A DNA stretch of 64,000 nt from Dehalococcoidia bacterium (GTDB lineage Bacteria; Chloroflexota; Dehalococcoidia; Dehalococcoidales; Fen-1064): NCBI GenBank assembly GCA_011171075.1, contig DUFD01000017.1, forward strand, positions 1,777-65,776, given 5' to 3'. Positions 2,493 through 47,193 of the stretch are shown piece by piece (the first letter of the stretch is position 1; every line of letters begins with the position of its first letter). Made by a program: the position numbers and the translations under genes. The notes below the pieces were generated by a model. It made no database searches. It had not been told where the DNA came from and worked only from the letters and a program-made list of their open reading frames with translations.

Positions 2493-2501
2493 GGACAGCC
2501 A

Positions 2502-2705
2502 ATGGTTACCGAGATAAGGCTGGGAGATGTGGTTCGCCTCAAGAAAAAACACCCCTGCGGCAGTGACCAGTGGGAGGTGGTAAGACTCGGGGCCGACATC
2601 GGTATCAGGTGCCAGGGATGCCAGCACCGCGTTCTCCTGGCACGCAGTGTTTTCGAGCGCCGAATCCGGGATTTCATCTCCCGTGGACCGCAGTCCGATA
2701 AATAG
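2502..2705 (+). CDS. DUF951 family small protein
   Basis: 67 aa. [39 protein letters not shown] matches my memory of the DUF951 (YyzM-like) pattern. Confidence 0.65.
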
Positions 2706-2749
2706 CACCGAATCAGCAACGATAATGGTGAAGTGAAGGGACCCTGCTG

Positions 2750-23204: not shown

Positions 23205-24677
23205 TCACCTGGTAATATCGATGAAGTAGTAAATTAATGAATCCTCTCCTGGAACTACAACCTCATCAATCTCAGCAATACGGGTCTCCACAAATGCCTC
23301 GGCTTCAAGAGCCCGTGCATAGCTCAAGACTGTAAAGGGATTATCCACAATACCCTCTATCATGATGCTATACCTGTCCATTTCGACCGCGGTGAAGGAG
23401 GCCTGTGATGGCAGAAGCCCTGTAACCAGTCCTAGATTGCCTGCGAAGTCACCTGCTCCGGCAAGCATCATCATATGTTCCTGTTGCAACGCCTGTAGAA
23501 CGGCAGCCATTTGGTTCACAAGTACCTCAGCATCGGCTTCGCCTGCGGCCGCCCGGCTGAGAGCGAGTTCAGCTAGATTCAGCTCGTGGGTTACCGTGTT
23601 TAACTCAGACTCCAGACGAGCTGTCTCGGCTACAGCATCATTCTTGAACTGGAAAAACGGAATTAATAGACCGGCAATGACTGCCAAGACACAATAAGGT
23701 ATCACATTTTTAAGCGATATATGGACATGCTTGGTTTGGTACGTTCCAGCCAGTATATTCAGCTGTGTATCATGGAAACCGTTAGTGGCCCTGATTTTCC
23801 GGAGAGCCAGGCCCATATTGGTTGCATAAAGAGCTACCGGTAATTCAGGCTGGAAGTGCAGAGGGGGGACTAGAGGCTTGACCGGATACTCCATCTCAGC
23901 CTGAATAAGCTCAGTGGTAGCACTGTTGGTCGCTAGCTGTCCCGTCAGCAGCAGTGGTGTATCAGCACTAAGCGGGTCTTCCGAATGACCGCTATTGTAG
24001 TACTTAACTGTCCTGGATAACTCATCAGTCAACTGTCGGACATGGTCGTGTATAGTCGCGCCTTCGGTCTTTGGGGTTACCGCATGCATTACCTCGGTAA
24101 TGCCATTGACTGATAAAACGATATCAAAGCACTCCGGCTCCATGGATACTACTATGGCATCGTTTTTGGCAGGTGCCCTGGCCAGAGCCAGAGGTTTCAG
24201 GTCCATTATATAGGGTTTTATACCAGCCCCAGTCAGTGTCTCCACCACAGCGGTAACAAGGTTGCGCGGCACGCCCAGAACGAAGAAATCGCTTTCATCG
24301 TCTCTTTGCGCAATAACCTGCCACGACAGGTACAGTTCGTCCACAGGTAGTGGCATCTCACGCTTCGCGGCACGCTTTATGGCCTCATCCAGAACCTCCG
24401 AGTCCACATGCGGCAAGCTCAGGATACGGTAGGTGAAGGATAGACCGGTCACGCTTACGATGACCCTCTTCTTGGGGATTCCCATTGTCTCGAAAAGGAG
24501 ATGAATGGCTTCGGCTACGGCATTCGGCTGCAAAATGAGACCGTCCCTGACCAATCCCGGGGCCAGAGGAGTGCTCCCCCATTTCTTCACCCGGCCACCT
24601 TTCATCGAAAATGCCCGGATATCACCAGCATTGATGTTCAGCGTGACATATGTTCGGCTAAAAAGTCCGTTAAGCAT
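23205..24677 (-). CDS. pilM: type IV pilus assembly protein PilM fused to a PilN-like TM/coiled-coil region
   Basis: Actin-like ATPase N-terminal ~300 aa, then a TM helix (VIPYCVLAVIAGLLIPFF), a coiled coil and a small C-terminal domain. Operon context. Confidence 0.65.
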   Translation of the reverse strand: MLNGLFSRTYVTLNINAGDIRAFSMKGGRVKKWGSTPLAPGLVRDGLILQPNAVAEAIHLLFETMGIPKKRVIVSVTGLSFTYRILSLPHVDSEVLDEAIKRAAKREMPLPVDELYLSWQVIAQRDDESDFFVLGVPRNLVTAVVETLTGAGIKPYIMDLKPLALARAPAKNDAIVVSMEPECFDIVLSVNGITEVMHAVTPKTEGATIHDHVRQLTDELSRTVKYYNSGHSEDPLSADTPLLLTGQLATNSATTELIQAEMEYPVKPLVPPLHFQPELPVALYATNMGLALRKIRATNGFHDTQLNILAGTYQTKHVHISLKNVIPYCVLAVIAGLLIPFFQFKNDAVAETARLESELNTVTHELNLAELALSRAAAGEADAEVLVNQMAAVLQALQQEHMMMLAGAGDFAGNLGLVTGLLPSQASFTAVEMDRYSIMIEGIVDNPFTVLSYARALEAEAFVETRIAEIDEVVVPGEDSLIYYFIDITR

Positions 24678-25295: not shown

Positions 25296-26507
25296 TCACC
25301 CCATAGTCCCCACAATGGAATACAATGGCCCGATGAAGGAAAGAGCAATGAAACCAACCAATAACCCAGAAAGCACCGTCATGGCAGGCTCTATCATCCT
25401 CACCAGACCAGCAATTCGCTGGTCAACAGCGTACTCATATCGGTCAGCAATATTGGCAACCATAGATTCCAAGTCACCGGTTTTCTCACCCACAGCCACC
25501 ATCTCAACCATCAGGCTGGGGAACAGCCCAATTTCTGCCATCGGGCGTGACAGACCCTGGCCCTGAACCAGTTTTTCCCTGAGTTCTACCAGAGCCTGAT
25601 GGACAACTCCGTTACCGATGGACGGAACCACGATATCCATTATCTCTGGCAGGTGAAGTCCGGCTTTCAGCAACATTGCCGTCGTATGGCAGAAGTGGTA
25701 CATGTTACGCTGCAGGACAATTGGGCCTATAACCGGCATTCTCAACAGGAATTTATCAAAGGCCAGTTTTCCTTCCGGAAACCTGAGGCAAGCAATACCC
25801 AGTCCGGCTAATGCAACCAGACCTACCAGAATGTGTATTTTATAGTCTGTCAGGAAATTTGAAACACCGATAAGTATTCTTGTCTGCAGAGGCAGAGTGG
25901 CATTAAGTGTCGAGAACATTTCCACCAGTGGTGGCAGAGCTACGGTAAGCAGTATGACGGATACCCCAATCCCCATCAAGCCCAGCAAAATAGGATACGC
26001 AAGCGCACCCTGTATCTTTTTCCTTGCAGCCGCCTGCTTGTCAATATATTCTGCTATATGCCTCAGCCCAGCCTCGAGGCTCCCCGACCGCTCGCTCGCC
26101 TTCATCACCTGGCAATAGGTGCGCGAAAATACCTGTGGATATTTACTTATCGCCACAGAGAAAGAACTGCCACCCCGAAGGTCATTTATCAGGTCAGCGA
26201 TGACCTTTTTGAAGGCGGAGTTTGTGTTCTGTTCCTGCAGTAGCTGCAGTGCGTTGAGGATATTTACACCGGATTCAATCAGGGTGGCCAATTCACGCGA
26301 AAAGTCAACAACGTCACCGCCCTTTATCCCGAAGAAGCTTGGCATCAGCTCTCGGATACTTTTTTGGGGACGCACTTCTGTCAGGCTGAGGATACGCTGA
26401 TACCCTGCCTGATACAGGGCGTCTTCAGCCATAGTTTCAGAAGTGCCGTCAATCGTACCTTTTACTGTCTTTCCATCCGCCGTATAAGCTGTATACTCGA
26501 ATATCAC
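25296..26507 (-). CDS. pilC: type II secretion system F family platform protein (PilC)
   Basis: Two GspF repeats and three TM segments, 403 aa. Typical motifs ..LSRPM..FP..MV..GE.TG.L. Confidence 0.9.
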   Translation of the reverse strand: MIFEYTAYTADGKTVKGTIDGTSETMAEDALYQAGYQRILSLTEVRPQKSIRELMPSFFGIKGGDVVDFSRELATLIESGVNILNALQLLQEQNTNSAFKKVIADLINDLRGGSSFSVAISKYPQVFSRTYCQVMKASERSGSLEAGLRHIAEYIDKQAAARKKIQGALAYPILLGLMGIGVSVILLTVALPPLVEMFSTLNATLPLQTRILIGVSNFLTDYKIHILVGLVALAGLGIACLRFPEGKLAFDKFLLRMPVIGPIVLQRNMYHFCHTTAMLLKAGLHLPEIMDIVVPSIGNGVVHQALVELREKLVQGQGLSRPMAEIGLFPSLMVEMVAVGEKTGDLESMVANIADRYEYAVDQRIAGLVRMIEPAMTVLSGLLVGFIALSFIGPLYSIVGTMG

Positions 26508-26534: not shown

Positions 26535-28241
26535 TCAGGAAATAGACAATACGCTGCGTAGCACTTCACTCGCCGTCGTGACGCCCTCTTTCACTTTCAG
26601 CATGCCGTCGCGCTGCATTGTTACCATTCCCTGTTTGATTGCCTCGGCCTTGATATCGTCAGCACTGACCTTGGTAAGCATCGCTCTTCGAATCTCCTCG
26701 TTCATCACCAGCATCTCAAAAAGGCCAGTCCGTCCGCGGTAGCCGGTATTGGCACACAGCTTGCAGCCGGTACCTCTGTAGAAGGCAGGCGTCTCATTCC
26801 CCATTTCAGCAGAGTAAATCACACGCTCGTCCATTGTCGGCTCAACCGTGGTACGGCAATAGGGACAAATCCGACGTACCATCCGCTGAGAAATCAGTCC
26901 GGCCAGTGTTGAGGTAATCAGATACGACTCGATACCCAGATCCATCAGCCGGAAGACCATGCTAATAGCATCGTTAGCATGAATCGAGGCAAGCACCAGA
27001 TGTCCGGTAAGAGCTGCCTGTACCGCCGTCGAGGCTGTATCTTTATCACGTATCTCGCCGACCAGAATGACATCAGGATCGTGTCGAACAATAGCCCGTA
27101 GACCGCTGGCGTAGGTAATGCCAGCCTTGAAATTAACCTGAGTCTGACTTATGTCCGGAAAACGGTATTCGATAGGGTCCTCAATAGTAAGGATGTTGTT
27201 GGCATCGCGGTCCAGTTCATTAATCGACGCGTAGAGGGTAGTCGTTTTACCCGAACCTGTAGGTCCACCCACCAGTATCATCCCGAAAGGACTCTTCAAC
27301 AGCGCTTTGTATTCCTTCAGAGTGTCCGAACGAAAACCAAGCTCGGAAAGAGTGAACAGGGAGAGTGACTTATCAAGAATTCGCAGGGTCACTCGCTCAC
27401 CATAGGCAGTAGCCATGGTAGCCGCCCGAATGTCAACATCCCGACTACCCACCTTGACCGAAAACTGGCCATCCTGGGGACGTCTCTGCTCCGCAATATT
27501 CATCTCGGCCAGGATTTTGATACGGGACAACAGGGGCACATGAGCATTCAGTGGCAGCGAGAACATCTCCTGCAAGATACCATCGATACGGTAGCGGACA
27601 CGCAGGTTCTTCTCATTCGGTTCCAGATGAACATCAGAAGCCCGGTCACGAACCGCCTGCTGTATCAGCAAATCCAAGCTTTGAGCAATCGGTGTCTTGG
27701 CAATTACTTTGGAAGTGATATCGACTTCTTCGTCTAGAGGCTTGGAAAACTGGCTGACCTGTTTCTCTATCTCACCACTGGACCTGTAATTAATGTCTAT
27801 CGCCCGCTCGATATCGGAAGGAACTCCCAGCGCCACCTCAATCCGCATTCCCGTCTGCGCTCTAATGTCGCGGATAGCCCGGATATCATCAGGGTAAGCC
27901 ATAACCACCGTCAGCGAATCATTAACCACCTCCAGCGGTATAAGCGTATATTTCCGTGCCATATCCTCCGGTATCATTCGCAACGAATCAGCTTGCACGA
28001 CATGTTTCTGCAGGTCAACCAGTGGTACATTAAGCTGGACGCCGTACACTGCAGCCACGTCTTCAGCCGTAACCACCCCTTGCTTCACCAGTATCTCACC
28101 GAGTTTACCACCCTTCTCCTGCTGAACCTGCAAGGCTTCTTTCAGTTGCTCGGGAGTTATCAGTTCCTCCTCAAGCAGCAACTGCCCGATGGGCTTATGC
28201 ATCATGTTCTCGGTAGAAGACTTCAATCTCTCAATAGCCAA
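26535..28241 (-). CDS. pilB: type IV pilus assembly ATPase (GspE/PilB family) with N-terminal MshEN/T2SSE_N domain
   Basis: Walker A GPTGSGKTTT, Asp box, Walker B ILVGEIRD, His box, and tetracysteine CPYC..C..C. Confidence 0.9.
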   Translation of the reverse strand: MAIERLKSSTENMMHKPIGQLLLEEELITPEQLKEALQVQQEKGGKLGEILVKQGVVTAEDVAAVYGVQLNVPLVDLQKHVVQADSLRMIPEDMARKYTLIPLEVVNDSLTVVMAYPDDIRAIRDIRAQTGMRIEVALGVPSDIERAIDINYRSSGEIEKQVSQFSKPLDEEVDITSKVIAKTPIAQSLDLLIQQAVRDRASDVHLEPNEKNLRVRYRIDGILQEMFSLPLNAHVPLLSRIKILAEMNIAEQRRPQDGQFSVKVGSRDVDIRAATMATAYGERVTLRILDKSLSLFTLSELGFRSDTLKEYKALLKSPFGMILVGGPTGSGKTTTLYASINELDRDANNILTIEDPIEYRFPDISQTQVNFKAGITYASGLRAIVRHDPDVILVGEIRDKDTASTAVQAALTGHLVLASIHANDAISMVFRLMDLGIESYLITSTLAGLISQRMVRRICPYCRTTVEPTMDERVIYSAEMGNETPAFYRGTGCKLCANTGYRGRTGLFEMLVMNEEIRRAMLTKVSADDIKAEAIKQGMVTMQRDGMLKVKEGVTTASEVLRSVLSIS

Positions 28242-28641
28242 TGTACTTCTCCAGTCTAGCGGACTCCACCTTTACAGGACTCAGTACCATGAGGCTATCA
28301 ACCACGTTGATAACCGTCGAAGGAGAGACCGGCTTAATAAGATAGTCATTAGCTCCAAGCTTAAATCCGGTCGCCATGTCCGCTTCTCGCGCTTTGTCAG
28401 AAAGCATTACTATCGGCAAGCTGTCACCCTCTGTCCTTAGTCTGTGGCAAACTTCAAAGCCATCCATTCCAGGAAGCATGACGCTCAATATAACAAGGTC
28501 AGGTCCTTCCGTCCTTGCTTTGTTCAATCCATCTGACCCATTGGATGCAATCAGTACCTCGTAGCCGTGTTGGGTCAGGGCATATTGCATCAGCTTCAAT
28601 GAAGCCGGGTCATCCTCAATCACCAGGACTTTCTTGTCCAT
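28231..28641 (-). CDS. stand-alone receiver-domain protein with Ser at the phospho-acceptor position
   Basis: KKVLVIEDD.., ..PDLVILSVMLPGMDG.. (Ser where the Asp is expected), ..IVMLSDK.., ..DYLIKPV. GGAGG SD lies 8 nt before ATG 28641. It overlaps the pilB start by 11 nt. Confidence 0.8.
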   Translation of the reverse strand: MDKKVLVIEDDPASLKLMQYALTQHGYEVLIASNGSDGLNKARTEGPDLVILSVMLPGMDGFEVCHRLRTEGDSLPIVMLSDKAREADMATGFKLGANDYLIKPVSPSTVINVVDSLMVLSPVKVESARLEKYIGY

Positions 28642-29124
28642 GTGTAAGACCTCCAACCTGAGCTACCACCAAAGCGGACCCCAGGTCCGATGCGGTAGCA
28701 CCGTAGCCTACAACAATCCGTCCAGTAGCCCGCCGTTTTGGCATATACTCTGAGGCTATCACCAACTTAGTTCATTCTTGCATCACGGTACTCTTACAAC
28801 AAGCCACTGGGGACCAAGTCTTCTGAACTACGCGGGCACACTTCGTGAGATATAGAGGCCATTGTCATGACCCCTCAGTGCCGTTCGGATGAATAGGCAG
28901 TCGGATAATATGACCCGATTGGACTTAAACAGGCTTTAACCTGTAACAAGATAGTATAGGGCGATACCAAATATCAGAATGGTGACATGATATTTAGTCC
29001 AGAGGGATTATGCGAGACAGGGGTCATTTCAAAGGTCTAGTTTAAGTGACAGCCAGAAAGAAAAGCAGCATTGCCGACTGTTATGAACGTATCGGAATGA
29101 TAAGCGGTAGTAATCTAATTGCTC

Positions 29125-36886: not shown

Positions 36887-38791
36887 ATGCCGAAGTTAAA
36901 ATCACTTCTTGACCTTGAAGAACTGCGTAAGGGTATCATTGCCAGTAAGGACCCCTCCAAGCAATGTATCACGATATGCTCGGGTACCGGTTGCCACGCC
37001 TATGCCAGCGAGAAAGTAGCCGACACCTTCGCCTCGGAACTGGAGCAGCAAGGTCTCAGTGAAAAAATAGACCTGCGACGGACCGGATGCCACGGTTTCT
37101 GTGAGAGAGGGCCCATCGTCGTTATCTTCCCGGACGAGATATGCTACCTCAGCGTCAAGCCTGATGACGTCTCGGAGATTGTATCCGAAACCCTCGTAGG
37201 GAAGAAAATCATTGAGCGTTTGCTCTACGTGGGCGATGACGGTAAGCCAATAACGCACGAGAATGATATCCCGTTCTACAAACACCAGATTCGCCTCGTG
37301 TTCGGGGACAACCGCCTGATAAATCCGCAGAGCATCGAGGACTATATTGGCCTCGGTGGATACGAGGCACTGGGCAAGGTACTCTTCGAGATGACGCCTG
37401 AGGACGTAATTGAAGTCGTCAAGAAGGCCAACCTGAGGGGGCGGGGCGGCGGCGGTTTCCCCGCGGGGATTAAGTGGGAGACAACCAGAAACGCCCCTGG
37501 CGATGCCAAGTATGTAATAGTTAATGCCGATGAAGGCGACCCCGGCGCCTATATGGACAGGAGCCTCCTTGAGGGCAATCCACACAGTGTGCTCGAAGGG
37601 CTAATGATTGGTGCCTATGCTATCGGTGCTAACCAGGGCTATATCTACGTACGCCAGGAATATCCTCTGGCCGTGGAGAATGTCGGTGTTGCCATAGAAC
37701 AGATGCGGGAATACGGACTCCTTGGCGAAAAAATCCTCGGGACCGGCTTTGATTTCGATGTCATCGTTCACCGCGGTGCCGGTGCCTTTGTCTCAGGCGA
37801 ATCGAGCGCCCTGATGACTGCCATCGAAGGAAGGGTCGGTGAGCCAAGACCCAAGTACATCCGCACCGCCGTCAGCGGTATACACGGTAGGCCGAGTAAT
37901 TTGAATAACGTTGAGACCTGGTCTAACGTGCCCCTGATAATAAAACATGGCGCCAAGTGGTTCGGCGGCATTGGTACCGAAGGCAGTAAGGGGACCAAGA
38001 TATTTTCACTGGTAGGCAAGGTGAACAATACCGGTCTTGTGGAAGTACCCATGGGAATGCCGCTCCGCGACATTATATATAACATCGGCGGCGGCATCCG
38101 CGGTGATAAGAAATTCAAGGCCGTGCAGACCGGTGGTCCCTCAGGCGGGGTAATCCCCGAAAGCCTCCTTAACCTGCCTGTTGATTTCGACGAGCTCTCC
38201 AAGGCAGGCTCTATGATGGGTTCCGGCGGCATGATTGTAATGGACGAGGACACCTGCGTGGTTGATGTCGCCCGGTATTTCCTGGACTTCCTCGCCGACG
38301 AGTCATGTGGTAAATGCATACCCTGCCGTGAAGGCATCCAGCAAATGCTGGTCGTGCTGAACAGGATATGTGAGGGGACCGGCAGAGAAGAAGACCTGGA
38401 CACGCTGGCAGACCTTGGCGATATGATGCGTGACTGTGCCCTGTGTGCCCTCGGACAATCGGCGCCGAACCCGGTGCTAAGTACGATACAGTACTTCAAA
38501 GAGGAATATGAGGAGCACATTCAGAATCACCGCTGTCCTGCCGGAGTCTGCAAAGAACTGATTAACTACTATATCGACCCTGAGAAATGCCAGGCGTGCA
38601 TGATATGCATGAGGAATTGCCCCGTGGGTGCCATAGATGGCGGCAAGAATATAGTACACGTGGTCATCCAGGAAAAGTGTACCAAGTGCGGTACGTGTCT
38701 GGAGGTCTGCCCACCACGTTTTGGTGCGGTGAGCAAGCTTTCCGGAGTAGAAATTCCTGAAGCTGCCGCGGGTGGTATAAAAGTAAGGTAG
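36887..38791 (+). CDS. NuoF/HymB-like NAD(P)H-binding flavoprotein with extra N-terminal [2Fe-2S] and C-terminal 2x[4Fe-4S] domains
   Basis: GRGGGGFP FMN/NADH motif, SLBB, ESCGKCIPCREG, and C-terminal CQACMICMRNCP / CTKCGTCLEVCP. Confidence 0.9.
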   Translation: MPKLKSLLDLEELRKGIIASKDPSKQCITICSGTGCHAYASEKVADTFASELEQQGLSEKIDLRRTGCHGFCERGPIVVIFPDEICYLSVKPDDVSEIVSETLVGKKIIERLLYVGDDGKPITHENDIPFYKHQIRLVFGDNRLINPQSIEDYIGLGGYEALGKVLFEMTPEDVIEVVKKANLRGRGGGGFPAGIKWETTRNAPGDAKYVIVNADEGDPGAYMDRSLLEGNPHSVLEGLMIGAYAIGANQGYIYVRQEYPLAVENVGVAIEQMREYGLLGEKILGTGFDFDVIVHRGAGAFVSGESSALMTAIEGRVGEPRPKYIRTAVSGIHGRPSNLNNVETWSNVPLIIKHGAKWFGGIGTEGSKGTKIFSLVGKVNNTGLVEVPMGMPLRDIIYNIGGGIRGDKKFKAVQTGGPSGGVIPESLLNLPVDFDELSKAGSMMGSGGMIVMDEDTCVVDVARYFLDFLADESCGKCIPCREGIQQMLVVLNRICEGTGREEDLDTLADLGDMMRDCALCALGQSAPNPVLSTIQYFKEEYEEHIQNHRCPAGVCKELINYYIDPEKCQACMICMRNCPVGAIDGGKNIVHVVIQEKCTKCGTCLEVCPPRFGAVSKLSGVEIPEAAAGGIKVR

Positions 38792-38802
38792 GGAGGCGAA
38801 CA

Positions 38803-39624
38803 ATGTCAACAGAAGAGAGAGAAAAGCAAAACAGCAGCGAAAGACAGACCAGAAGAGCCGTAAGCGACCGAAGAGTAGAGGGTGTCACCCAGCCGATTGC
38901 ACCCGCTGTCGAAGCAGCCAGGCAGGTCGAACTGACCATCAATGGTCAGGCGGTCGAAGCCTGGGAGGGAATGACCCTACTTCAGGCAGCCCAGAGTGTT
39001 GGCATCTCTATCCCCACCCTCTGTCATCACAAAGAGCTCTCCACCTACGGTGCCTGCCGACTTTGCAGCGTGGAAGTGATAAGGGGAAGAAGATCACGAA
39101 TAGTGGCATCCTGTATCTATCCGGTCGAGGACGGGATAGAAGTACTGACCGAATCAGAGAAGGTCGCAAAGCACCGCAAGATAATACTGGAGCTAATTCA
39201 GGCCCGGTGGCCATGGGTGGATAAGGAATTACTCGAAAAGTACGGTGCCCAGCCAGGCCGGTTTGAGGAAAAGACAGACTTCTGTATTCTGTGTGGCCTG
39301 TGCGTACGGTACTGCACCGAGGTCAAGAAGGCAAACTGCCTTGGCTTCGTAGGCAGAGGCGCAGAGCGTCAGATAGTCATCTACCCCGAACGTGCCATTG
39401 AAATGTGTCCCACCTGTGAAGGCGGCAATATGGGGTGTCGCTCGGTCTGCCCAACAGGCACCATGCCTAACGAGTTCGCGCATACTGGTCCGCGATTCGG
39501 CAAGAAGCTACCCCTGGCATACCCCGTCAAGAGCTACAGCGAAGATAACGTGCGGGAGGTGCTCCACACAGTGGGTGACTGGCGGATGCCTTGGGTACGC
39601 AGCCAGACCATGCCCGGCAAGTAG
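38803..39624 (+). CDS. 2Fe-2S/4Fe-4S ferredoxin-like subunit resembling only the N-terminal part of NuoG/HydA
   Basis: ELTINGQ..TLLQAAQSVGISIPTLCHH..GACRLCSVEV, then CILCGLCVRYC and CPTCEGGNMGCRSVCPTG. At 273 aa it has no molybdopterin or H-cluster domain. Confidence 0.7.
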   Translation: MSTEEREKQNSSERQTRRAVSDRRVEGVTQPIAPAVEAARQVELTINGQAVEAWEGMTLLQAAQSVGISIPTLCHHKELSTYGACRLCSVEVIRGRRSRIVASCIYPVEDGIEVLTESEKVAKHRKIILELIQARWPWVDKELLEKYGAQPGRFEEKTDFCILCGLCVRYCTEVKKANCLGFVGRGAERQIVIYPERAIEMCPTCEGGNMGCRSVCPTGTMPNEFAHTGPRFGKKLPLAYPVKSYSEDNVREVLHTVGDWRMPWVRSQTMPGK

Positions 39625-40124: not shown

Positions 40125-40511
40125 ATGAACAGCAAAGAGCAGATTGTCAATGAGGTCATTGCCGAGTGGGTCGGATTCAAGGAGAGGCTGACCCCGGGCA
40201 CACAATCAAGCTGGTGGGAATATGATGGCTACCCGTACGCTCAATGTCCTGACTTCATGAACTCAGAAACCGACTGCTTCAACTGGATAGTCCCGACCCT
40301 ACAGAAAAGGGGGTACGGGGTAGACATTACCGTCGGTAAATGCGGGGCATTCATCAACCTGTTCGAACTCGAAGAAAAACACGAAGAATGCGAAGAGGAT
40401 TCAGTCCACGCCACTGCTCTGGGTATTGACACCAGTGTATCGACTGCCCTCTGCACTGCTGTACTCTCGCTGATAAAGATAGAACGAGCAGGAGGAGTCA
40501 GCAGATTCTAG
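40125..40511 (+). CDS. hypothetical protein (faint resemblance to phage ABA-sandwich-domain proteins)
   Basis: 128 aa, preceded by ~420 bp of AT-rich non-coding DNA. The pattern ..VIAEWVGFK..W..YDGYPY..P.F..ETDCFNWIVP.LQKRGY.. recalls that family only loosely. Confidence 0.4.
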   Translation: MNSKEQIVNEVIAEWVGFKERLTPGTQSSWWEYDGYPYAQCPDFMNSETDCFNWIVPTLQKRGYGVDITVGKCGAFINLFELEEKHEECEEDSVHATALGIDTSVSTALCTAVLSLIKIERAGGVSRF

Positions 40512-40570: not shown

Positions 40571-42541
40571 CTACAATTTCCAACGTTCGCCCGGTACCTC
40601 CAGGATTACCTTCGTGCCCTTACCTAGACTCGAGTAGATATTAAGAGTACCACCGAGCAAGTCCGCCCGCTCCTGCATACCCGCCAGGCCTATCTTACCG
40701 CCCTGAACAAACTTCAGGCCCTCTTCCATCTCGAATCCCCTACCGTCATCGCTGATTTCCACTCTTGTCTTTTCTTCGGAAAACCTGACGACTACCCGAG
40801 CTTTCTTCGCTCCTGAGTGCCTCCAGACGTTACGCAAAGCTTCCTGAACAAGACGATATATCAGGAGCTCATCCCCTTCCGCAAAGTGCCGCTCGGTTCC
40901 GATGGTCTGCAATTTGCATTGAATGCCACTCTGTGATTCCCATTGAGACACCAGCTCTCTTAGAGCTGGTAGAAGTCCCAGATAGTCAATCGTAGGTGGA
41001 CGCAGGTCCTGCGTGAAGTGGCGTATCTTATCCATAATCTCGTCCACTTCCCCACGGATGCCTTCCAGGCGGGCTTCGCACTTTGAATCCAAATTCTCAC
41101 TGGAAGTGATGTCATCTATCTTCCTGGATAAGACAACCATTGCCTGTATGGGGTCGTCATGCAGTTCCCGGGCAATCCGCTTCCGCTCCTCTTCCTGTGC
41201 TCGGGTTATCTGGCGCGCGTAGAGACGAAGGTTCTCCTGCAGTAGCTTTTCCTGGGTAACATCACGCGAGATATGCTGAAAAACCGGCGGGCCACCTTCA
41301 TCGCCGATAAGCGAGGTGGTCAGCATAATAATCGCTTCGCTGCCATCCTTTCTTATCACTTTCTGCTCGTATGGTTGCTTTACTTCTTCCCCGGAGAGCA
41401 GCTTGCGGCGTATCTCTCTTGCCAACTGCATGCCTTCAGGCCGAAGGAACTCGGAGACATTCATACCGACCAGTTCACCGAGTGAATACCCGGTGTATTC
41501 AGCAGTTGCCTGATTGGCCGTCTGTATTATCCCTTCAGAATCCTGTACCCAGATGGCATCATGCGCCTTCTCGAACAGTTCCTGGAACCTCTTTCCGGCG
41601 CGTTTCGATTGCTCGTCGAGCTCAGCTTTCTCCACAGCCACGCCGAGCTCTGTCCCGATTAGCTGAAGGAGCTGCTGTTCTTCTCGCACAAAGTGCCTGG
41701 CGCTCCGTGAAATGACACTGAGTGTCCCCACCACCTTGTCCCTGGAAACCAGGGGCACAATGAATTGAGACACTACACCTTCGTTTCTCACTATTTCCCG
41801 CGACAGCCTGGGGTCATTTGACGAATCTTCTATTACGGCAGGTTCCCCTGTCTGGGCAACCCATCCGTTGAACCCCTCGCCTACCTTCAGTTTGTCTACT
41901 TTTCTGGCAAAATTGTCAGAAACACCCCGATACGTTTTTACCACCAGTTCAGTGGTCTCCTCCTGGAGCAAGAAGACAAGTAGACCGTCGACGTCAACAG
42001 CCTCCATTATCTTGTCCGCTGCCGTGTTGATTATCTCGTCTAGACTGCTCAACTGGTTGATGGCAGTGGTGATGGAGTGAAGAACAGAGAGACGCTTCTC
42101 ATTTTCCCGGATAGTCTGGATATAAGATTGCAACTCCCTGCGTACGGCCTCAAGCTTAAGGAGCGCCTGCTCTCGCCGGCCTATCTCAAGATGACGGGAC
42201 TCCAGCCACCAGATGACACCGCCGCCGATAACGGACACTCCTATCGTTTCGAAAAGGGCATCCGCAACTTGAGGGGAAATAATGAGTGCCCGGGGCAGCA
42301 TGGCGGCAATAGCGAGTGCCAGGCAGATGAACCCACCCCTCAACCCGAATACCAGACCGGCAAAGACGACCAGAGCCAGGAACAGGATACGCTCCACGCT
42401 ATGGCGTCCAAGGCCCAGGATAGAATTAACTTCCACGTCCAGGAAAGGCATCTTCTCTGCGTAATGCAGAATGACACAGAAAATAAAGAGAACGATGAGT
42501 ACCCAGAAAAGGGGATTACGCAGTACCGCCAGGTATCTCAT
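40571..42541 (-). CDS. membrane GAF-PAS sensor histidine kinase (HisKA_3 / NarX-type)
   Basis: N-terminal TM helices, GAF and PAS regions, H-box ARELHDDPIQ, and a C-terminal HATPase (DDGRGF..GLAGMQERADLLGG). Confidence 0.9.
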   Translation of the reverse strand: MRYLAVLRNPLFWVLIVLFIFCVILHYAEKMPFLDVEVNSILGLGRHSVERILFLALVVFAGLVFGLRGGFICLALAIAAMLPRALIISPQVADALFETIGVSVIGGGVIWWLESRHLEIGRREQALLKLEAVRRELQSYIQTIRENEKRLSVLHSITTAINQLSSLDEIINTAADKIMEAVDVDGLLVFLLQEETTELVVKTYRGVSDNFARKVDKLKVGEGFNGWVAQTGEPAVIEDSSNDPRLSREIVRNEGVVSQFIVPLVSRDKVVGTLSVISRSARHFVREEQQLLQLIGTELGVAVEKAELDEQSKRAGKRFQELFEKAHDAIWVQDSEGIIQTANQATAEYTGYSLGELVGMNVSEFLRPEGMQLAREIRRKLLSGEEVKQPYEQKVIRKDGSEAIIMLTTSLIGDEGGPPVFQHISRDVTQEKLLQENLRLYARQITRAQEEERKRIARELHDDPIQAMVVLSRKIDDITSSENLDSKCEARLEGIRGEVDEIMDKIRHFTQDLRPPTIDYLGLLPALRELVSQWESQSGIQCKLQTIGTERHFAEGDELLIYRLVQEALRNVWRHSGAKKARVVVRFSEEKTRVEISDDGRGFEMEEGLKFVQGGKIGLAGMQERADLLGGTLNIYSSLGKGTKVILEVPGERWKL

Positions 42542-43212
42542 GCTTCACGACTCCCCTGCTCTTCCAGAGTCAGCCAGCCTTTTTTCAGGCAATGGACTAT
42601 TGCTTCAGTGCGTGAGTATACCCCGAGTTTATCGAAGATATTACGCCAGTGTGTCTGGACAGTGCGAGGCCCGATTGATAAAGACGCCGCTATCTGCTTG
42701 TTGCTCATTCCGTCAGCACCCAGCCGAACAACCTGGCGTTCTCTTTCACTCAGCAGGTCAACCTTCTCACGACTGGGTTTGGTCTGCGAATGCACTAATT
42801 GATTAAACAACGCCTTGGCGATGGCCGGATGGAGTACGGATTCACCGGCGTGAGCAGTACGGATCGCGTTGGTCAACTCCTTCCCCCGCACATTCTTCAG
42901 CAAATAGCCTTCTGCCCCGGCCCCGATAACCGCAGAGACAAACTCCGGGTTATCATAGGCCGTCAGTACCAGAATGCAGATACGGGGAAGGGCTTCCTTT
43001 ATTTGCTGCGTGGCCTGAATGCCGTTCATCCGGGGCATGGCGATGTCCATCAGCACAACGTCCGGCTTCAGTTCCAGCACCTGGCGCACTGTCTCTTCGC
43101 CGTCCTCAGCCTCACCAACGACCTCCATGTCCACTTCCCGTGAGATGAGTTCGCGAAGCCCCTCTCGCACTACCGAGTGGTCTTCCGCCAGAAAAACTGT
43201 AATATTCTCCAT
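42538..43212 (-). CDS. NarL/LuxR-family response regulator
   Basis: Receiver VFLAEDH..PDVVLMDIAMPRMNG..VLTAY, plus a LuxR HTH (LSERERQVVRLGADGMSNKQIAASLSIGPRTVQTH). 4-nt overlap with the kinase gene. Confidence 0.9.
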   Translation of the reverse strand: MENITVFLAEDHSVVREGLRELISREVDMEVVGEAEDGEETVRQVLELKPDVVLMDIAMPRMNGIQATQQIKEALPRICILVLTAYDNPEFVSAVIGAGAEGYLLKNVRGKELTNAIRTAHAGESVLHPAIAKALFNQLVHSQTKPSREKVDLLSERERQVVRLGADGMSNKQIAASLSIGPRTVQTHWRNIFDKLGVYSRTEAIVHCLKKGWLTLEEQGSREA

Positions 43213-43343
43213 CTCTACATAATTATACCACAGGGCTTATCTCACCATCCCTCAAATGGCATACGCAATTTGGCGCTTATCGGTAGTCTCTACGTAAGTT
43301 AGTATAAAAGTGTACACACTAATGGAATGTAAGGAGGCATGTA

Positions 43344-43754
43344 ATGTCAGGAGGTAAGAAAGTCATAGTAGTCGATAAGGGAACAGAACTGACCAAGATT
43401 GCACAAAAGGCTGCCGAGCTCTCATCGTGGGAGTTAGCAATTGCAACTGATACCAAGCAAGCACGGGAACTGGCAGCAACCAAGAATCCGGGAATCATCA
43501 TCCTGGGATACCTTGAACCTCAGGGTGAGGCTTTTCGTCTACACAAGCAGCTCAGGGAAAACGCGAAGACCGAGAGCATCCCACAGGTAGTGATAGACGT
43601 CGCTCCCGATGAGCAACTACAAAAGGGATGGCGTAAGGCTGACGGCCTGAGGATGGATGCAGAGCATTATCTTTGCATGCCGGTCAGTCCATCTGAGCTG
43701 GCAAAGGTTGTAGATGATGTCGCTGCACTCAATGAGGCAATTGGCGTAATCTAA
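43344..43754 (+). CDS. receiver-like (pseudo-receiver) protein, paralog 1
   Basis: 136 aa with a REC-like (beta-alpha)5 pattern. It reads GIIILGYLEPQG where DxxMP is expected. It also has IPQVVIDVAPDE, KGWRKADGLRMDAEHYLCMPV. AAGGAGG SD upstream. Confidence 0.6.
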   Translation: MSGGKKVIVVDKGTELTKIAQKAAELSSWELAIATDTKQARELAATKNPGIIILGYLEPQGEAFRLHKQLRENAKTESIPQVVIDVAPDEQLQKGWRKADGLRMDAEHYLCMPVSPSELAKVVDDVAALNEAIGVI

Positions 43755-43785
43755 CCACCACTATTGGTAATCATGGAGGCGAAAA

Positions 43786-44265
43786 ATGGGGAAGGATAAG
43801 AGGATTCTGATAATTGATAGCGAGCCTGATTTCCTGAAAGACACGGGGGCGGCTTTAAGCGACTTTTACACGGTAATTACGGCGACCAAGGCAGATGAAG
43901 GACTGGACAAGGCAGAGCGCGAAAGTCCCGATGCAATCATACTGGGATATCTGAAACCACGCGGCACTTCTTTCAAGGTCCACACAGAGCTTCGCAGTAG
44001 ACCGTCGACGCGGGATATCCCCCTCCTGATAGTTGATGTCCGCCCCGAGGAGCACTCCCGGAAAGGGTGGAGGATGTTTGAGGGATTGAAAATGAACGCG
44101 GAGGACTATATCTCACGGCCAGTCGAGCTTGCCGAACTCACCAGTTCGATAGAAGGCATAATCCGCAGGACCTCTGTAGAACCTATGGGATTGAGAGAGG
44201 CGTCGGAGCAACTGGAGAAGGCACTGGAGCGTATTAACAAGATAGAAGAACTCCTTATAACGTAA
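43786..44265 (+). CDS. receiver-like (pseudo-receiver) protein, paralog 2
   Basis: 159 aa. DAIILGYLKPRG, IPLLIVDVRPEE, KGWRMFEGLKMNAEDYISRPV, and a C-terminal helical tail. Confidence 0.6.
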   Translation: MGKDKRILIIDSEPDFLKDTGAALSDFYTVITATKADEGLDKAERESPDAIILGYLKPRGTSFKVHTELRSRPSTRDIPLLIVDVRPEEHSRKGWRMFEGLKMNAEDYISRPVELAELTSSIEGIIRRTSVEPMGLREASEQLEKALERINKIEELLIT

Positions 44266-44270
44266 GCAGT

Positions 44271-46301
44271 ATGGAGGACGTAATGAAAGATATGGCAGAG
44301 GGAAACGGAAACGGAAAACCGAAAATCCTCGTGATAGGCAACGAGGCTGAATTTCTGGAGAAAGCGAAAGAATCGCTCGACGAGGCCGAATATGATGTCA
44401 GCCTGACATCGGACGAAGAAGAAGCCCTGAAGAAGGCACGGGAGGAAGCCCCCGATGCCATTATCCTGGGTTATATGGAACCCCGCGGTTCTGCCTTCAA
44501 ACTTCACAGCGAGCTTCGAGAGGGTTGGCTGACCAAGAATATACCTTTACTCGTGGTCGATATTAACTCCGATGAGCATACACGTAAAGGGTGGCGGCGA
44601 GAAGAGGGGATGATGATGGATGCGGAGAACTACATTGCTATCTCCGGACAGGAATCCATCCCCGTTGCCCGCTTGCTGGACCCCGTCAGGATAAGAGAAA
44701 GAGTTAACGGGCGCCTCAAGGAGAGGGTAAACACGCTCAGCCAGGCCATCCTGGACCCCAGTACGTTCTGCGTTACCTGGGAGCAGATACCGGGAAGGGG
44801 AGCCCTGGAAACACAGCAGGGTGAACTCATTGATAATGCCCGAAAGGCAGCCAAGAGCGGTAAAATCCACGGTATGAGCGTCACCGATAACCCCGGCGGT
44901 AACCCGGCCCTCTCAACCGAAATGCTGTGTACTGAGATAAAGAAGCTGGGAATTGAACCCCTCGTCCACCTGGCCTGTCGTGACAAGAACCGAAATGAAA
45001 TCGAGAGTATGCTCCACGGTCTGACGGCTGCCCAGGTAAGGAACCTGCTTATATTGACCGGCGACTTTCCGGCAAACGAGGCCTTCGGGGGAAAGTCCAA
45101 GCCCGTATTTGACCTGGACCCGATACATGTCCTGCAACTGATAGAAAAAATGAATGCCGGGCTGGAACACGAGGTTATGCGCCGAACGATGACACTGACA
45201 CCCACGGAGTTCTTTGCCGGGGCCTGCGTTTCGCCCTTCAAGAAGACCGAGGCCGAACTGATGGGGCAGTACTACAAGCTCAAAAAGAAAATAGAGGCCG
45301 GCGCGAAGTTTATTATCATACAGGTCGGTTATGACGCCAGAAAGTTCCATGAAATCCTGCAGTGGCTTAAGGTAAACGGCTACGACATCCCGGTGCTGGC
45401 CAATATCTACATCCTGCCCCTCGGCACAGCCAGGTTGATGAACTCCAACGGCATTCCCGGATGCGTGGTCACCGATAAACTAGTGGCCGAGCTGGCCGAA
45501 GAAGCAAAGGCAGATGACAAAGGCAGGGCCAGCCGACTTCTCAGGGCAGCCAAAATGTATGCCATCGCCAAGGGCATGGGCTTCGCCGGTGCCCACATCG
45601 GGGGACACGGTGTAACCTACAAGATGGTCGAATATATCATCGACAAGGGCGAGGAGCTAGCGCCGCACTGGCAGGAGCTGGTAGCTGAGTTTGACTTCCC
45701 TCAGGAAAACGGCTTCTACTTCTTTGAGCGCGACCCCAGAACAGGACTGAACACCAATAACCCGGCCATGCGACCCCTGAAGCCCTCGAAGCCACTGATG
45801 TACCGCTTCTCACGGTTGGCACATAAACTCCTCTTCAACCCGAAGAGTATCATTCTCAAGGCATTTCAGCGCATCGCACCGCGTATAGACTCCTCACCAC
45901 GAATGAAGAGGACATTCGGTTACTTCGAACATCTTGCCAAGGTAGCGCTCTTCGGCTGTATGAACTGTGGCGACTGCGCCCTGACCGATGTCGCTTACCT
46001 GTGTCCCATGTCGCAGTGCCCCAAGAACCAGAGGAATGCACCATGCGGGGGAAGCTATGACGGCTGGTGTGAGGTCTACCCGAACGAGAGGAAATGTGTC
46101 TGGGTGAAGGCCTACGAAAGGCTGAAGGCTTACAGGGAAGAGGACGAAATAGGCGACCATATCGTTCCGCCATGCAACTGGGAACTGTTTGAGACCCCCT
46201 CCTGGCTGAACTTTGCCCTGGGTAAAGACCACTCGTCAAAAAGTGTGGGGATAAAACCACCAGAAAAGAAGTCGCTAAAAAAGAAGACAACCACTGATTA
46301 A
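44271..46301 (+). CDS. metF: pseudo-receiver (paralog 3) fused to methylenetetrahydrofolate reductase and a MetV-type (MTHFR C-terminal) zinc-ribbon domain
   Basis: N-terminus: DAIILGYMEPRG..IPLLVVDINSDE..KGWRREEGMMMDAENY. Middle: MTHFR core (..MSVTDNPGG.., HLACRD.N, LLILTGD, FIIIQVGYD). C-terminus: CMNCGDCAL..CP.SQCPKNQRNAPCGG..GWCEV. Confidence 0.85.
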   Translation: MEDVMKDMAEGNGNGKPKILVIGNEAEFLEKAKESLDEAEYDVSLTSDEEEALKKAREEAPDAIILGYMEPRGSAFKLHSELREGWLTKNIPLLVVDINSDEHTRKGWRREEGMMMDAENYIAISGQESIPVARLLDPVRIRERVNGRLKERVNTLSQAILDPSTFCVTWEQIPGRGALETQQGELIDNARKAAKSGKIHGMSVTDNPGGNPALSTEMLCTEIKKLGIEPLVHLACRDKNRNEIESMLHGLTAAQVRNLLILTGDFPANEAFGGKSKPVFDLDPIHVLQLIEKMNAGLEHEVMRRTMTLTPTEFFAGACVSPFKKTEAELMGQYYKLKKKIEAGAKFIIIQVGYDARKFHEILQWLKVNGYDIPVLANIYILPLGTARLMNSNGIPGCVVTDKLVAELAEEAKADDKGRASRLLRAAKMYAIAKGMGFAGAHIGGHGVTYKMVEYIIDKGEELAPHWQELVAEFDFPQENGFYFFERDPRTGLNTNNPAMRPLKPSKPLMYRFSRLAHKLLFNPKSIILKAFQRIAPRIDSSPRMKRTFGYFEHLAKVALFGCMNCGDCALTDVAYLCPMSQCPKNQRNAPCGGSYDGWCEVYPNERKCVWVKAYERLKAYREEDEIGDHIVPPCNWELFETPSWLNFALGKDHSSKSVGIKPPEKKSLKKKTTTD

Positions 46302-46377
46302 AATAGGTAAAGGTGGCCATATGCCTGGATGCCACTCAGGGATATGGCCACCAGGACTATCCATCAGGCAAGATGCA

Positions 46378-47193
46378 CTACGGCCACATCACAAATTCGC
46401 CAACGAGCTCACTAACTATTAACCAGATTGCGATAAAGAGTAACAGCACTGCAAATAACCTTCTGAGCAAGCCCGTTCTCGTCTGTATAGAGAGACCGGA
46501 GCCGAGCCACCCCCCTACGAACGCAGCCGCCGCCAGGGGCAGGGCGATAAGGATATCGAATGACCCTCCGACGATATGCCCGCAAAGACCGGCAATTGCC
46601 GTAAAACCTACCATGAGAGCTGAAGTACCGATAGCTATCCGTACAGGCACGCTTCCCAGTAATACCATCGCCGGCACTTTAAAAACACCCCCCGATATAC
46701 CAATCATACCTGCCATAAAGCCGGCGATAGTGGTAATGGGCATAAGCCAGGGCAACCGTACCATATAGTTGGAATCGCCCAGGGTCCGCTGCCAGTAGCC
46801 CCATCGGCGTACCGGGATACTCTCCCTCTCTACAATATCCCTGACCATGAAGAAACTCACCAGGACAAGCGCTGCCGCAAACACCATTTTCAGCGCCAGT
46901 GCATCGATATAGTTTGCCACCAGACCACCAATGAAAGCCATGACGAAGGTCGGGGGCTCGATTACTAGTGCTAGCTTCCAGTCAACATAGCTACGCTGAC
47001 TGTACCTGATGAACGCCGATATTGACGTGCCCAGGATAACAAAGAGACTGGTGGTGACCGCATCGTGGATGCTCATCCCAAGTGCAAGGAGTATCGGCAC
47101 ATAGATAACGCCACCACCAATACCTACCATCGAAAATGCCGTGGATGCAGCCAGGATGGCGAAAGCAGCAATAATTACTGAAGCAACCGGCAT
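46378..47193 (-). CDS. TauE/SafE family sulfite-exporter-like membrane protein
   Basis: 271 aa with ~8 TM segments and repeated GIGGG(V) motifs (MVGIGGGVIYVP; MIGISGGVFKVP). Confidence 0.8.
   Translation of the reverse strand: MPVASVIIAAFAILAASTAFSMVGIGGGVIYVPILLALGMSIHDAVTTSLFVILGTSISAFIRYSQRSYVDWKLALVIEPPTFVMAFIGGLVANYIDALALKMVFAAALVLVSFFMVRDIVERESIPVRRWGYWQRTLGDSNYMVRLPWLMPITTIAGFMAGMIGISGGVFKVPAMVLLGSVPVRIAIGTSALMVGFTAIAGLCGHIVGGSFDILIALPLAAAAFVGGWLGSGLSIQTRTGLLRRLFAVLLLFIAIWLIVSELVGEFVMWP

Follow-up and report, generated by a model that had tools for sequence, protein, structure and literature searches.

Why should a methylenetetrahydrofolate reductase (MTHFR), the enzyme that carries out the committed step in the methyl branch of the Wood-Ljungdahl pathway, a step whose energetics are puzzling, carry a domain that resembles the receiver of a response regulator, and why should two free versions of that domain be encoded just before it? 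The question is raised by a 64,000-nucleotide (nt) stretch of contig DUFD01000017.1 (positions 1,777 to 65,776 of the forward strand; assembly GCA_011171075.1) from a Dehalococcoidia bacterium, hereafter called the window. Three co-oriented genes follow each other there on the plus strand: P1 (43344..43754, 136 residues), P2 (43786..44265, 159 residues), and P3 (44271..46301, 676 residues from the first ATG), with intergenic gaps of 31 nt (P1-P2) and 5 nt (P2-P3). A preliminary description of this locus had reported that the three genes share an N-terminal module of about 125 residues, joined in the third to an MTHFR and a MetV-like domain, and open reading frames (ORFs), alignment, and Pfam searches all agree with it. 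The modules, in which the phospho-acceptor Asp is missing (hence Asp-less), show a dedicated genetic association with MetFV-type MTHFR systems and with two-component genes. Their family is a conserved accessory of MTHFR gene clusters in anaerobes, and a candidate regulatory domain for a bacterial MTHFR.

At the sequence level, homology with receivers is clear despite sub-threshold Pfam scores: with Response_reg (PF00072), P1 reaches 19.4 bits, P2 29.8 bits, and P3 23.8 bits, for a gathering cut-off of 30.2 bits. P2 is matched by PhoB in NCBIfam (E = 1e-16) and by PleD in a phmmer search (E = 1.6e-14), the latter being its best sequence match in the PDB, and the modules retain a beta5 signature, A-[DE]-x-Y, like that of OmpR/PhoB. 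The NCBIfam matches are just partial ones to PhoB- or PleD-type receivers, far under the cut-offs, and the minor Pfam pseudo-receiver families give no match to the modules of P1, P2, or P3; a match to a characterised family, which would have spoken against the preliminary description, was, thus, not obtained. Pfam searches of the three proteins also reveal no C-terminal DNA-binding output domain (Trans_reg_C or GerE). The CheY fold is confirmed for P2 and for the N-terminus of P3, whose AlphaFold models both adopt a (beta-alpha)5 topology (predicted local distance difference test, pLDDT, of 88 for P2; overall pLDDT of 76 and predicted template modelling score, pTM, of 0.79 for P3). In Foldseek searches, the solved structures nearest to P2 are OmpR/PhoB-family receivers (PhoB, MicA, RpaA, PhoP) and PleD, with target-normalised TM-scores of 0.82-0.88 against isolated receiver domains (PhoB, MicA, PhoP). 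P2 also ends with an extra conserved helix (residues 136-158), which is kept in P2-type proteins. Comparison of the P2 family with the fused-module family using hhalign gives a probability of 100% over 111 columns, with 47% identity; as this alignment stops at beta5, it gives no support to an equivalence of the P2 helix with the helix that links the fused module to the barrel, an equivalence that would have favoured docking in trans.

The three modules are 31-35% identical and share 28 invariant columns, including ILGY, KGWR, and AExY. The replacement of the acceptor Asp by Gly, proposed at the outset, stands: phmmer alignments with PleD, PhoP, and PhoB, as well as the 62-sequence family profile, place the Gly of ILGY opposite the acceptor ('iilGylkP' versus 'iilLDvmmP'), and no Asp was found at that position. 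The same is true of the beta5 Lys, which becomes Met in P1, Arg in P2, and Ile in P3. The Thr/Ser of beta4, previously read as Val/Ile, is in fact an invariant Asp ('livDVrp' versus 'vvliTald'), with Val/Ile as the flanking residues. The beta1 acidic pair is lost, as described, in P3 (G-N), but P1 (D-K) and P2 (D-S) keep its first Asp. KGWR is indeed common to P1, P2, and P3, although it lies in an insertion of about five residues in the beta4-alpha4 loop (forming a short extra helix in the P2 model) rather than in the alpha4 region, and it is not universal, since one large fusion subgroup has R-V-L-S instead. All three modules, thus, combine G-Y at the acceptor, Asp at the Thr position, and KGWR. 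The catalytic quintet DD/D/T(S)/K is broken in each of them, as it is in 182 of 183 homologs, and P1, P2, and the N-terminus of P3 are pseudo-receivers, predicted to be incapable of Asp phosphorylation. Independence from Asp phosphorylation would follow chemically from the Gly; other residues could carry a phosphate.

A broken phosphorylation site may reflect decay or reuse. The acceptor position is Gly in 119 of 120 fusion homologs and in all 63 free P2-type homologs (63 clusters), the Thr position is Asp or Glu in all fusion and free homologs, the D+4 Pro and K-3 Tyr are near-invariant, and K-G-W is kept in the free forms. Because the Gly, Asp/Glu, Pro, and Tyr are conserved across homologs, the site is a conserved new one and not a decayed one, and the modules are under selection. 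This bears on the explanation that the modules are purely structural, serving oligomerisation or solubility, or that they are relics of a former response regulator, with P1 and P2 being dispensable. Many lineages naturally use a core enzyme that functions without any module, and prokaryotic MTHFRs take various oligomeric states via their catalytic domains (PMC13001107), both of which suit such an explanation. It is nevertheless improbable, given the strong position-specific conservation of the new residue set over deep divergence, the retention of free paralogs as separate lineages, and the tight co-occurrence with kinases.

The complete P3 architecture is found in more than 120 clusters at 90% identity, each at least 62% identical over about 97% of the length. 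All the fused modules that were inspected are Asp-less. Among species-representative genomes, the fusion occurs mostly in metagenome-assembled genomes (MAGs) of Dehalococcoidia and other Chloroflexota, and also in Spirochaetes, a Clostridia MAG, Calditrichales, Acidobacteriota, and Aegiribacteria. The same core enzyme without the module is present at 26 of the 55 genome loci (27 by hidden Markov model classification), from other Dehalococcoidia, Desulfosporosinus, Syntrophomonas, Anaerolineae, and Desulfobacteraceae; its identity is 50-68% for most of them and 37-41% in three Desulfobacteraceae or delta-proteobacterial loci. A profile search over 1.84 billion representatives was also carried out, and its top 150 matches were classified, yielding 38 Asp-less proteins of the G...D...KGW type and 111 multi-receiver hybrid kinases; as the hybrid-kinase scores are sums over several canonical domains, counts at E-value thresholds are no measure of family size. 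Included among the 38 is a subgroup of short Asp-less proteins with the signature DD-G-T-D-(K/R)GWR-K, in which the acidic pair and the Lys are retained and the changes are limited to the acceptor Asp and the Thr (members P0193, P0198, P0204, P0233, P0272, P0285, P0289, P0293, P0299, and P0305).

In a neighbour-joining tree, built without bootstrap and, hence, of approximate topology, the Asp-less modules form one clade apart from canonical receivers, and this clade splits into a P1-type group, a P2-type group, and a single fused-type group that spans all genomic context classes. The three types would, to this approximation, be old and separately conserved paralog lineages. The 'triplication' of the preliminary description is misleading, and a recent tandem origin is rejected, as each lineage has orthologs elsewhere.

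The enzyme part of P3 was analysed domain by domain. Residues 18-124 (44322..44642) form the fused-type Asp-less module, delimited by profile alignment, AlphaFold (in which the secondary structure runs from beta1-alpha1 to beta5), and hhalign, followed by the MTHFR TIM-barrel catalytic domain (residues 161-446, 44751..45608, from PF02219, Foldseek, and motif alignments), and by the MetV-like Cys-rich domain (residues 544-638, 45900..46184; PF12225, MTHFR_C/DUF5981). The Pfam matches are well above their cut-offs, with 77.7 bits for PF02219 (cut-off 24, residues 161-419) and 99.3 bits for PF12225 (cut-off 23, residues 544-638). The barrel superposes on the Thermus thermophilus and Escherichia coli enzymes (target-normalised TM-score of 0.83 and E = 6e-13 in Foldseek for T. 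thermophilus). The flavin and catalytic motifs sVTdnpGG, HLaC, LtGD, and iiQ are kept when aligned with the T. thermophilus, yeast, and Chaetomium enzymes, and their family forms VTxxxGG, HLxC, L(R/T)GD, and xxQ fall on or beside invariant or near-invariant columns. For this motif match, the flavin and catalytic residues of the E. coli enzyme were taken to be T59, H88, D120, Q183, and E28. E171, H233, D265, and Q351 of P3 are invariant in 62 homologs, the equivalent of E28 (in WEQ) being assigned by motif alone. The same 62 homologs show nine invariant Cys, at positions 563, 566, 569, 578, 583, 592, 600, 609, and 635 of P3. The 565-608 segment is modelled with low pLDDT, as expected for a metal-cluster site modelled without metal, and the structure search returned no solved homolog of this Cys-rich domain. 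By analogy with the literature on acetogen MetV (PMC8760232), it may bind both an Fe-S cluster and Zn. Judging from its motifs, P3 is a single-chain reductase of the MetF-MetV type with an extra N-terminal domain, its MTHFR and MetV-like core being intact.

Shine-Dalgarno sequences precede P1 (AAGGAGG) and P2. As the first ATG of P3 has none, while a GGAGG (44274-44278) precedes a second ATG at 44283, the true start of P3 is probably this second ATG (Met5), giving 672 residues, which is also the length of the L001 ORF counted from its ATG. Genes for Hdr, MvhD, or RnfC2 are not found adjacent to P3 in the window. A separate MetF of about 295 residues, matching PF02219 only, adjoins the fusion in most loci of the context classes B and C defined below (for example, L005 10073-10960 and L016 7058-7960). 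It is about 26-30% identical to the fusion barrel, so that those clusters contain two MTHFR barrels; the window is without such a MetF.

The genomic context of the relatives reveals what the modules are associated with. Divergently from P1, on the minus strand, the window encodes a NarL/LuxR-type response regulator of 224 residues (42538..43212), with a canonical receiver (Response_reg, 97.9 bits) and a GerE helix-turn-helix (70.6 bits), and, as the second gene of the same operon, a sensor histidine kinase of 656 residues with a GAF-PAS-HisKA_3-HATPase_c architecture (40571..42541), both identified with Pfam. This two-component context, also represented elsewhere by canonical receivers and kinases, had been missed in the preliminary description, together with the palindrome presented below. 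Unbiased clustering of the neighbours in the 55 genome loci retrieves as recurrent partners only receivers, hybrid kinases, NarL-type regulators, and the GAF-PAS kinase. Kinase orthologs (52-62% identity) adjoin Asp-less receiver or MTHFR genes in L001, L007, L024, L026, L034, and L039, and the same domain architecture is found in L056-L063 and in many metagenome loci.

Three layouts can be distinguished. In class A (the window, L001, L039, L007, L024, L026, L034, and L056-L063), the GAF-PAS-HisKA_3 kinase and the NarL-type regulator, orthologs of which (60-78% identity) are present in all class-A loci, are divergent from an operon led by a P2-type gene, or by a P1-type then a P2-type gene. 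In class B (12-13 Dehalococcoidales or Calditrichales loci), a hybrid kinase binding cyclic nucleotides (cNMP) is followed, in this order, by a canonical single-domain receiver, sometimes a GNAT acetyltransferase, the fusion, and the separate MetF. In class C, represented by spirochaetes and some ten metagenome loci, MetF comes first, then a canonical single-domain receiver, and then the fusion, with a REC-PAS kinase nearby. The free receivers of classes B and C have the canonical DD/D/T/K residues and no output domain, and their clusters are without a transcription factor. The small GNAT gene lies between the free receiver and the fusion in L005 (7355-7804), L004, L008, L010, L062, and the metagenome loci L094 and L105, a recurrence from which Lys acetylation is a possible component of the system.

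The P1-P2-P3 layout recurs in L001 and in nine metagenome loci (L064, L066-L069, L072-L074, and L091), so that the three-gene arrangement is conserved in relatives. L072 is probably the same contig as L001, leaving about eight further metagenome loci; six of the nine extend far enough to show the fusion, and three contigs end short of it. The association with two-component genes is specific to the module: another receiver gene lies within 4 kb in 19 of 25 module-bearing loci versus 3 of 22 module-less loci (Fisher p = 2.6e-5, an optimistic value, as the loci are phylogenetically non-independent). Two of these three module-less loci carry a free P2-type gene. Beside module-less cores, housekeeping neighbours (QueA, SurE, and others) were recognized by eye.

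The P2-type genes also have a context of their own. They lead module-less MTHFR-MTHFR_C genes in L024, L026, and L058, and split hdrA-like/hdrA-mvhD-like/metV/metF clusters of the Moorella type in L056, L060, L078-L080, L087, L088, L093, and L096, an extra kinase and a canonical receiver being inserted before hdrA in L084, L086, L089, and L095. Once, in L061, the operon led by the P2-type gene encodes a nicotinamide adenine dinucleotide (NAD)-linked formate dehydrogenase. MTHFR components, whether fused, module-less, or split, are the cargo in about 32 of the 33 loci where the cargo is visible. Because P2-type genes accompany module-less MTHFRs and, once, formate dehydrogenase, P2 is not simply a duplicate of the enzyme's own domain. 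In L061, a receiver fused to a formate/nitrite transporter (2406-3680; PF00072 and PF01226) adjoins a REC-HisKA kinase and the formate dehydrogenase operon. Besides, the selenocysteine machinery genes selA and selB directly adjoin the kinase/NarL-type/P2 cassette, upstream of the kinase, in L058/L059 and, as a separate context, in L062, which fits selenoprotein-dependent one-carbon (C1) or Hdr-type enzymes in those organisms.

Such positions are what would be expected if P1 and P2 were decoys docking on the kinase or on the NarL-type receiver and exerting feedback on their own operon, instead of modulating the enzyme, the fused module then reporting MTHFR abundance or state to the kinase. In the sampled contexts, the P2-type gene adjoins the kinase/NarL-type pair in six out of six and is first in the divergent operon in five out of six, and this holds for fused MTHFR, split hdr-metVF, and formate dehydrogenase cargo. 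P2-type proteins keep E13 and F16 in alpha1, the first acidic residue, and an Arg or Lys at the Lys position, which could preserve kinase docking, and binding competition was proposed for CmrT and other pseudo-receivers (PMC12632262). Feedback of this kind leaves unexplained the covalent fusion of a paralogous module to the enzyme across several phyla, as well as the pairing, in classes B and C, of the fused module with an output-less canonical receiver where no transcription factor is encoded. It is, therefore, judged unlikely as an account of the family.

The divergent promoter region of the window offers a candidate site for transcriptional control. An operator-like imperfect palindrome, TACGCAATTTGGCGCT (43262..43277), is located there upstream of P1, and constitutes the sole exact match to this sequence in the window. 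Its family consensus is TACGCC-N4-GGCG(T/C)(A/T). In 11 class-A loci, whatever the cargo, the palindrome immediately precedes the first Asp-less gene, with examples in L001, L007, L024, L026, L039, L056/57, L060, L061, and L063; L056/57 has two copies, one of which is a perfect 7-4-7 palindrome, and the position is kept in L007, where kinase genes lie downstream, and in L061, where formate dehydrogenase is the cargo. From its position, it is a candidate operator that the NarL (GerE)-type regulator may bind. On the other side, an extended -10-like element, TGGTATAAT (43222..43230, minus strand), lies about 9 nt upstream of the regulator start codon, and may act as the promoter of the regulator-kinase operon. 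The same element, as ATTATA(C/T)CA, adjoins the regulator start codon in most class-A loci, which suggests that the regulator-kinase mRNA is leaderless or has a very short leader. A consensus promoter and terminator scan of 43100-46500 returned a single promoter-like site, which is intragenic.

The favoured reading of these data is that the modules are phosphorylation-independent adaptors coupling MetF-MetV-type MTHFR to two-component signalling, a proposal held tentatively, at slightly less than an even chance, and one that supposes physical interaction, operator function, and an effect on catalysis. It would specify the 'switch or scaffold controlling the C1/folate step' that the preliminary description had conjectured. 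A first layer of control would be transcriptional, with the divergent GAF-PAS kinase and NarL-type regulator acting on P1-P2-P3 through the palindrome at 43262-43277. In a second layer, P1 and P2, expressed together with P3, would form a complex with it by way of receiver-receiver or receiver-enzyme contacts, and this assembly would set the activity of P3, its oligomeric state, or its choice of partner, without phosphorylation. In the sister lineages, the free partner would be a phosphorylatable single-domain receiver, fed by the adjacent kinase, and the sole plausible output of that receiver would be binding to the pseudo-receiver fused to the enzyme. The adaptor model is strongest in classes B and C, because an output-less receiver and a kinase adjoin a receiver-bearing enzyme there, with no transcription factor. 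The existence of the same core enzyme without the module also supports it, the module being an accessory in nature. There are precedents for action through heterodimers of a receiver with a pseudo-receiver, and for action through binding to a kinase (PMC12632262, PMC4125116).

Several points weigh against adaptors of this type. A shared alpha4-beta5-alpha5 dimer surface is not guaranteed, because the detectable homology between P2-type and fused-type modules spans beta1-beta5 only, and alpha5 of the fused module is modelled by AlphaFold with low confidence. Six module-bearing loci have no receiver neighbour within 4 kb, and the non-independence of the loci tempers the statistics given above. 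One P2-led operon encodes formate dehydrogenase, not MTHFR; as P2-type genes are always found next to the kinase/NarL-type pair, the two-component system, and not the enzyme, could be what P2 serves. All the relatives are uncultured MAGs or metagenome contigs, and the metagenome loci may include redundant contigs. Finally, the pocket-like residue set (G-Y, D, E-E-H, K-G-W, and an alpha3 His) fits ligand binding equally well.

According to this last possibility, the modules are small-molecule sensors, in which an acidic and aromatic pocket, remodelled at the former phosphosite, allosterically regulates MTHFR in response to a quinone, a flavin, a nucleotide second messenger, S-adenosylmethionine (SAM), or a folate. 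The module would then play in bacteria the part that the SAM-binding regulatory domain plays in eukaryotes. One group of conserved residues occupies the beta3-alpha3 loop and the beginning of alpha3 (G-Y-L-x-P-x-G-x-x-F-x-x-H), and a second group the inserted beta4-alpha4 loop (D-V-x-P-E-E-H-x-x-K-G-W). These regions bind quinone in KaiA, and are those that differ most between pseudo-receivers and true receivers (PMC12632262); the pseudo-receivers of ShkA, CikA, KaiA, and JadR1 are ligand-regulated. Invariance of the residues across three paralogs of only 31-35% identity also argues for a specific site. Nevertheless, the pocket is not uniform, owing to the change of K-G-W to R-V-L-S in the large fusion subgroup, no ligand is named by the sequence, and the recurrent canonical receivers and kinases are left unexplained. 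Ligand sensing as the explanation of the family is, thus, doubtful, though it and the adaptor model could both hold. Ranked by likelihood, it comes first among the rival explanations, followed by decoy or feedback action, a structural or relic role, and the electron carrier described next, the first two being compatible with parts of the adaptor model.

The same two loops raise the idea of a receiver fold converted to a flavodoxin-like electron carrier feeding the MetFV enzyme. CheY and flavodoxin share their fold, the Tyr of the beta3-alpha3 loop and the Trp of the beta4-alpha4 loop recall a flavin sandwich, and the physiological electron donor of MetVF-type enzymes is described as unresolved (PMC8760232). 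Against this, the segment after beta1 differs among the three paralogs and contains no conserved phosphate-binding loop, the Trp is replaced by Leu in many fusions, and all the sequence and structure matches are receivers, with no flavodoxin among them, making such a conversion very improbable.

Adaptor function and ligand sensing can also be combined. A two-component phosphorelay would act directly and post-translationally on the MetF-MetV MTHFR, an enzyme central to carbon fixation and energy metabolism, by docking of a phosphorylated single-domain receiver or, in the lineage of the window, of the Asp-less P1 and P2, while the remodelled pocket would also sense a redox or metabolite ligand. 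In subsurface Chloroflexi, docking and ligand sensing together would gate electron flow through the Wood-Ljungdahl methyl branch. This composite is speculative, and taken as a whole it is not thought likely.

Other genes of the window are less clearly related to the system. Upstream of the kinase, on the plus strand (36887-39624), are encoded a NuoF-like protein of 634 residues, with 2Fe-2S thioredoxin-like, FMN, NADH_4Fe-4S, and Fer4 domains, then a Fer2_4 protein of 273 residues resembling the N-terminus of NuoG. As conserved partners they were rejected, the NuoF-like gene recurring in none of the 55 genome loci and the 2Fe-2S gene in two. Fer2_4 homologs occur in L021 and L026, NuoF- or Fdh-like genes lie near the fusion in L068, and a few such matches were found in metagenome loci; the pair could serve the reductase as an NADH input module. 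A 128-residue ORF (40125-40511, plus strand), placed between the 2Fe-2S gene and the kinase, has neither a Pfam match nor any homolog in the related loci. A second Asp-less receiver, unrelated to the modules, is encoded on the minus strand (28234-28662). This 142-residue single-domain protein scores 100 bits with PF00072 and has a Ser at the acceptor position ('dlvilSvmlp' versus 'dlivlDvmlp' in PhoP), the DD, Ser/Thr, and Lys positions being kept. It adjoins type IV pilus genes for PilB (26535-28241), PilC (25296-26507), and a PilM-like protein (23205-24677).

The interest of this family lies at the junction of two questions. The first concerns MetVF-type enzymes, of which not only the electron donor but also the control is described as unresolved (PMC8760232), current reviews stating a regulatory domain for eukaryotic MTHFRs only (PMC13001107). 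The second concerns pseudo-receivers, which represent about 6% of bacterial receivers, and whose working is described as largely a mystery (PMC12632262). The MTHFR-linked family joins both, with a clear conserved partner enzyme and with natural variants, in which the module is part of the enzyme, stands alone, or has a canonical receiver as its partner; the conserved kinase/regulator cassette and the candidate operator also contribute to making it a tractable case. If the combination of docking and ligand sensing were true, the module would give prokaryotic MTHFRs their first known regulatory domain, and the family would be one of pseudo-receivers with a defined enzymatic target. As Dehalococcoidia and other anaerobes of sediments and the subsurface carry it in abundance, the family may control C1 flux in much of the deep biosphere. 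In practice, automatic annotation is affected too: it names free copies 'PhoB' or 'OmpR family', a misannotation of P2 homologs arising from receiver similarity, and it never flags the N-terminal domain of the fusion, annotated in databases without it.

Compared with known systems, the modules share with pseudo-receivers and ALR domains (FrzS, PleD D2, ShkA REC1, KaiA/CikA PsR, WhiI, and CmrT; PMC12632262, PMC4395418) the (beta-alpha)5 CheY fold, the loss of the acceptor Asp and of other quintet residues, a presumed action by protein-protein contacts or ligand binding, and the general acidic excess in the beta3-alpha3 and beta4-alpha4 loops. They differ in forming a self-consistent family, with G-Y at D/D+1, Asp at the Thr position, and the inserted K-G-W loop, and, unlike many pseudo-receivers, they keep the D+4 Pro and the K-3 Tyr. 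They are tied to a metabolic oxidoreductase, and not to a DNA-binding, kinase, or cyclase output, and three paralogous lineages are found within one operon. The BldM-WhiI heterodimer (PMC4125116) and the REC-REC' pair of PleD provide precedents in which a phosphorylation-incompetent receiver pairs with another receiver to create an output. Here, the output would be a C1-metabolism enzyme, rather than transcription or the synthesis of cyclic di-GMP, the pairing is deduced from synteny, and all three partners in the window are Asp-less.

On the enzyme side, P3 shares the PF02219 barrel and the PF12225 domain with acetogen MetVF types II-IV (MetF and MetV, with or without RnfC2 or HdrABC-MvhD; PMC8760232, PMC5736913), and in relatives the same regulatory cassette leads split hdrA-mvhD-metV-metF clusters of the Moorella type. 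Unlike these, P3 is one polypeptide, MetF then MetV, with an N-terminal pseudo-receiver, and the described acetogen types have neither a receiver-like domain nor dedicated receiver-like subunits. The likeness to the SAM-binding regulatory domain of eukaryotic MTHFR (PMC13001107) is a functional analogy only, that of an extra domain that could regulate a committed C1 step: the folds are unrelated (two five-stranded sheets versus the CheY fold), the eukaryotic domain is C-terminal whereas that of P3 is N-terminal, and no homolog of it is detected in P3, the PDB matches 6fcx, 8qa4, and 8uy1 covering the catalytic barrel only. Full-text literature searches retrieved no description of an Asp-less module on MTHFR, in line with the preliminary description, which knew of none; the nearest statement is a passing remark on DscP3, a marine Chloroflexi genome in which metF_1 is said to be flanked by putative 'phoBR' genes (PMC5736913). 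Pseudo-receivers and MetVF-type reductases are, thus, already known; what appears to be new is the Asp-less family itself, its fusion to MTHFR, the free paralogs leading MTHFR operons, and the accompanying cassette of kinase, regulator, and palindrome.

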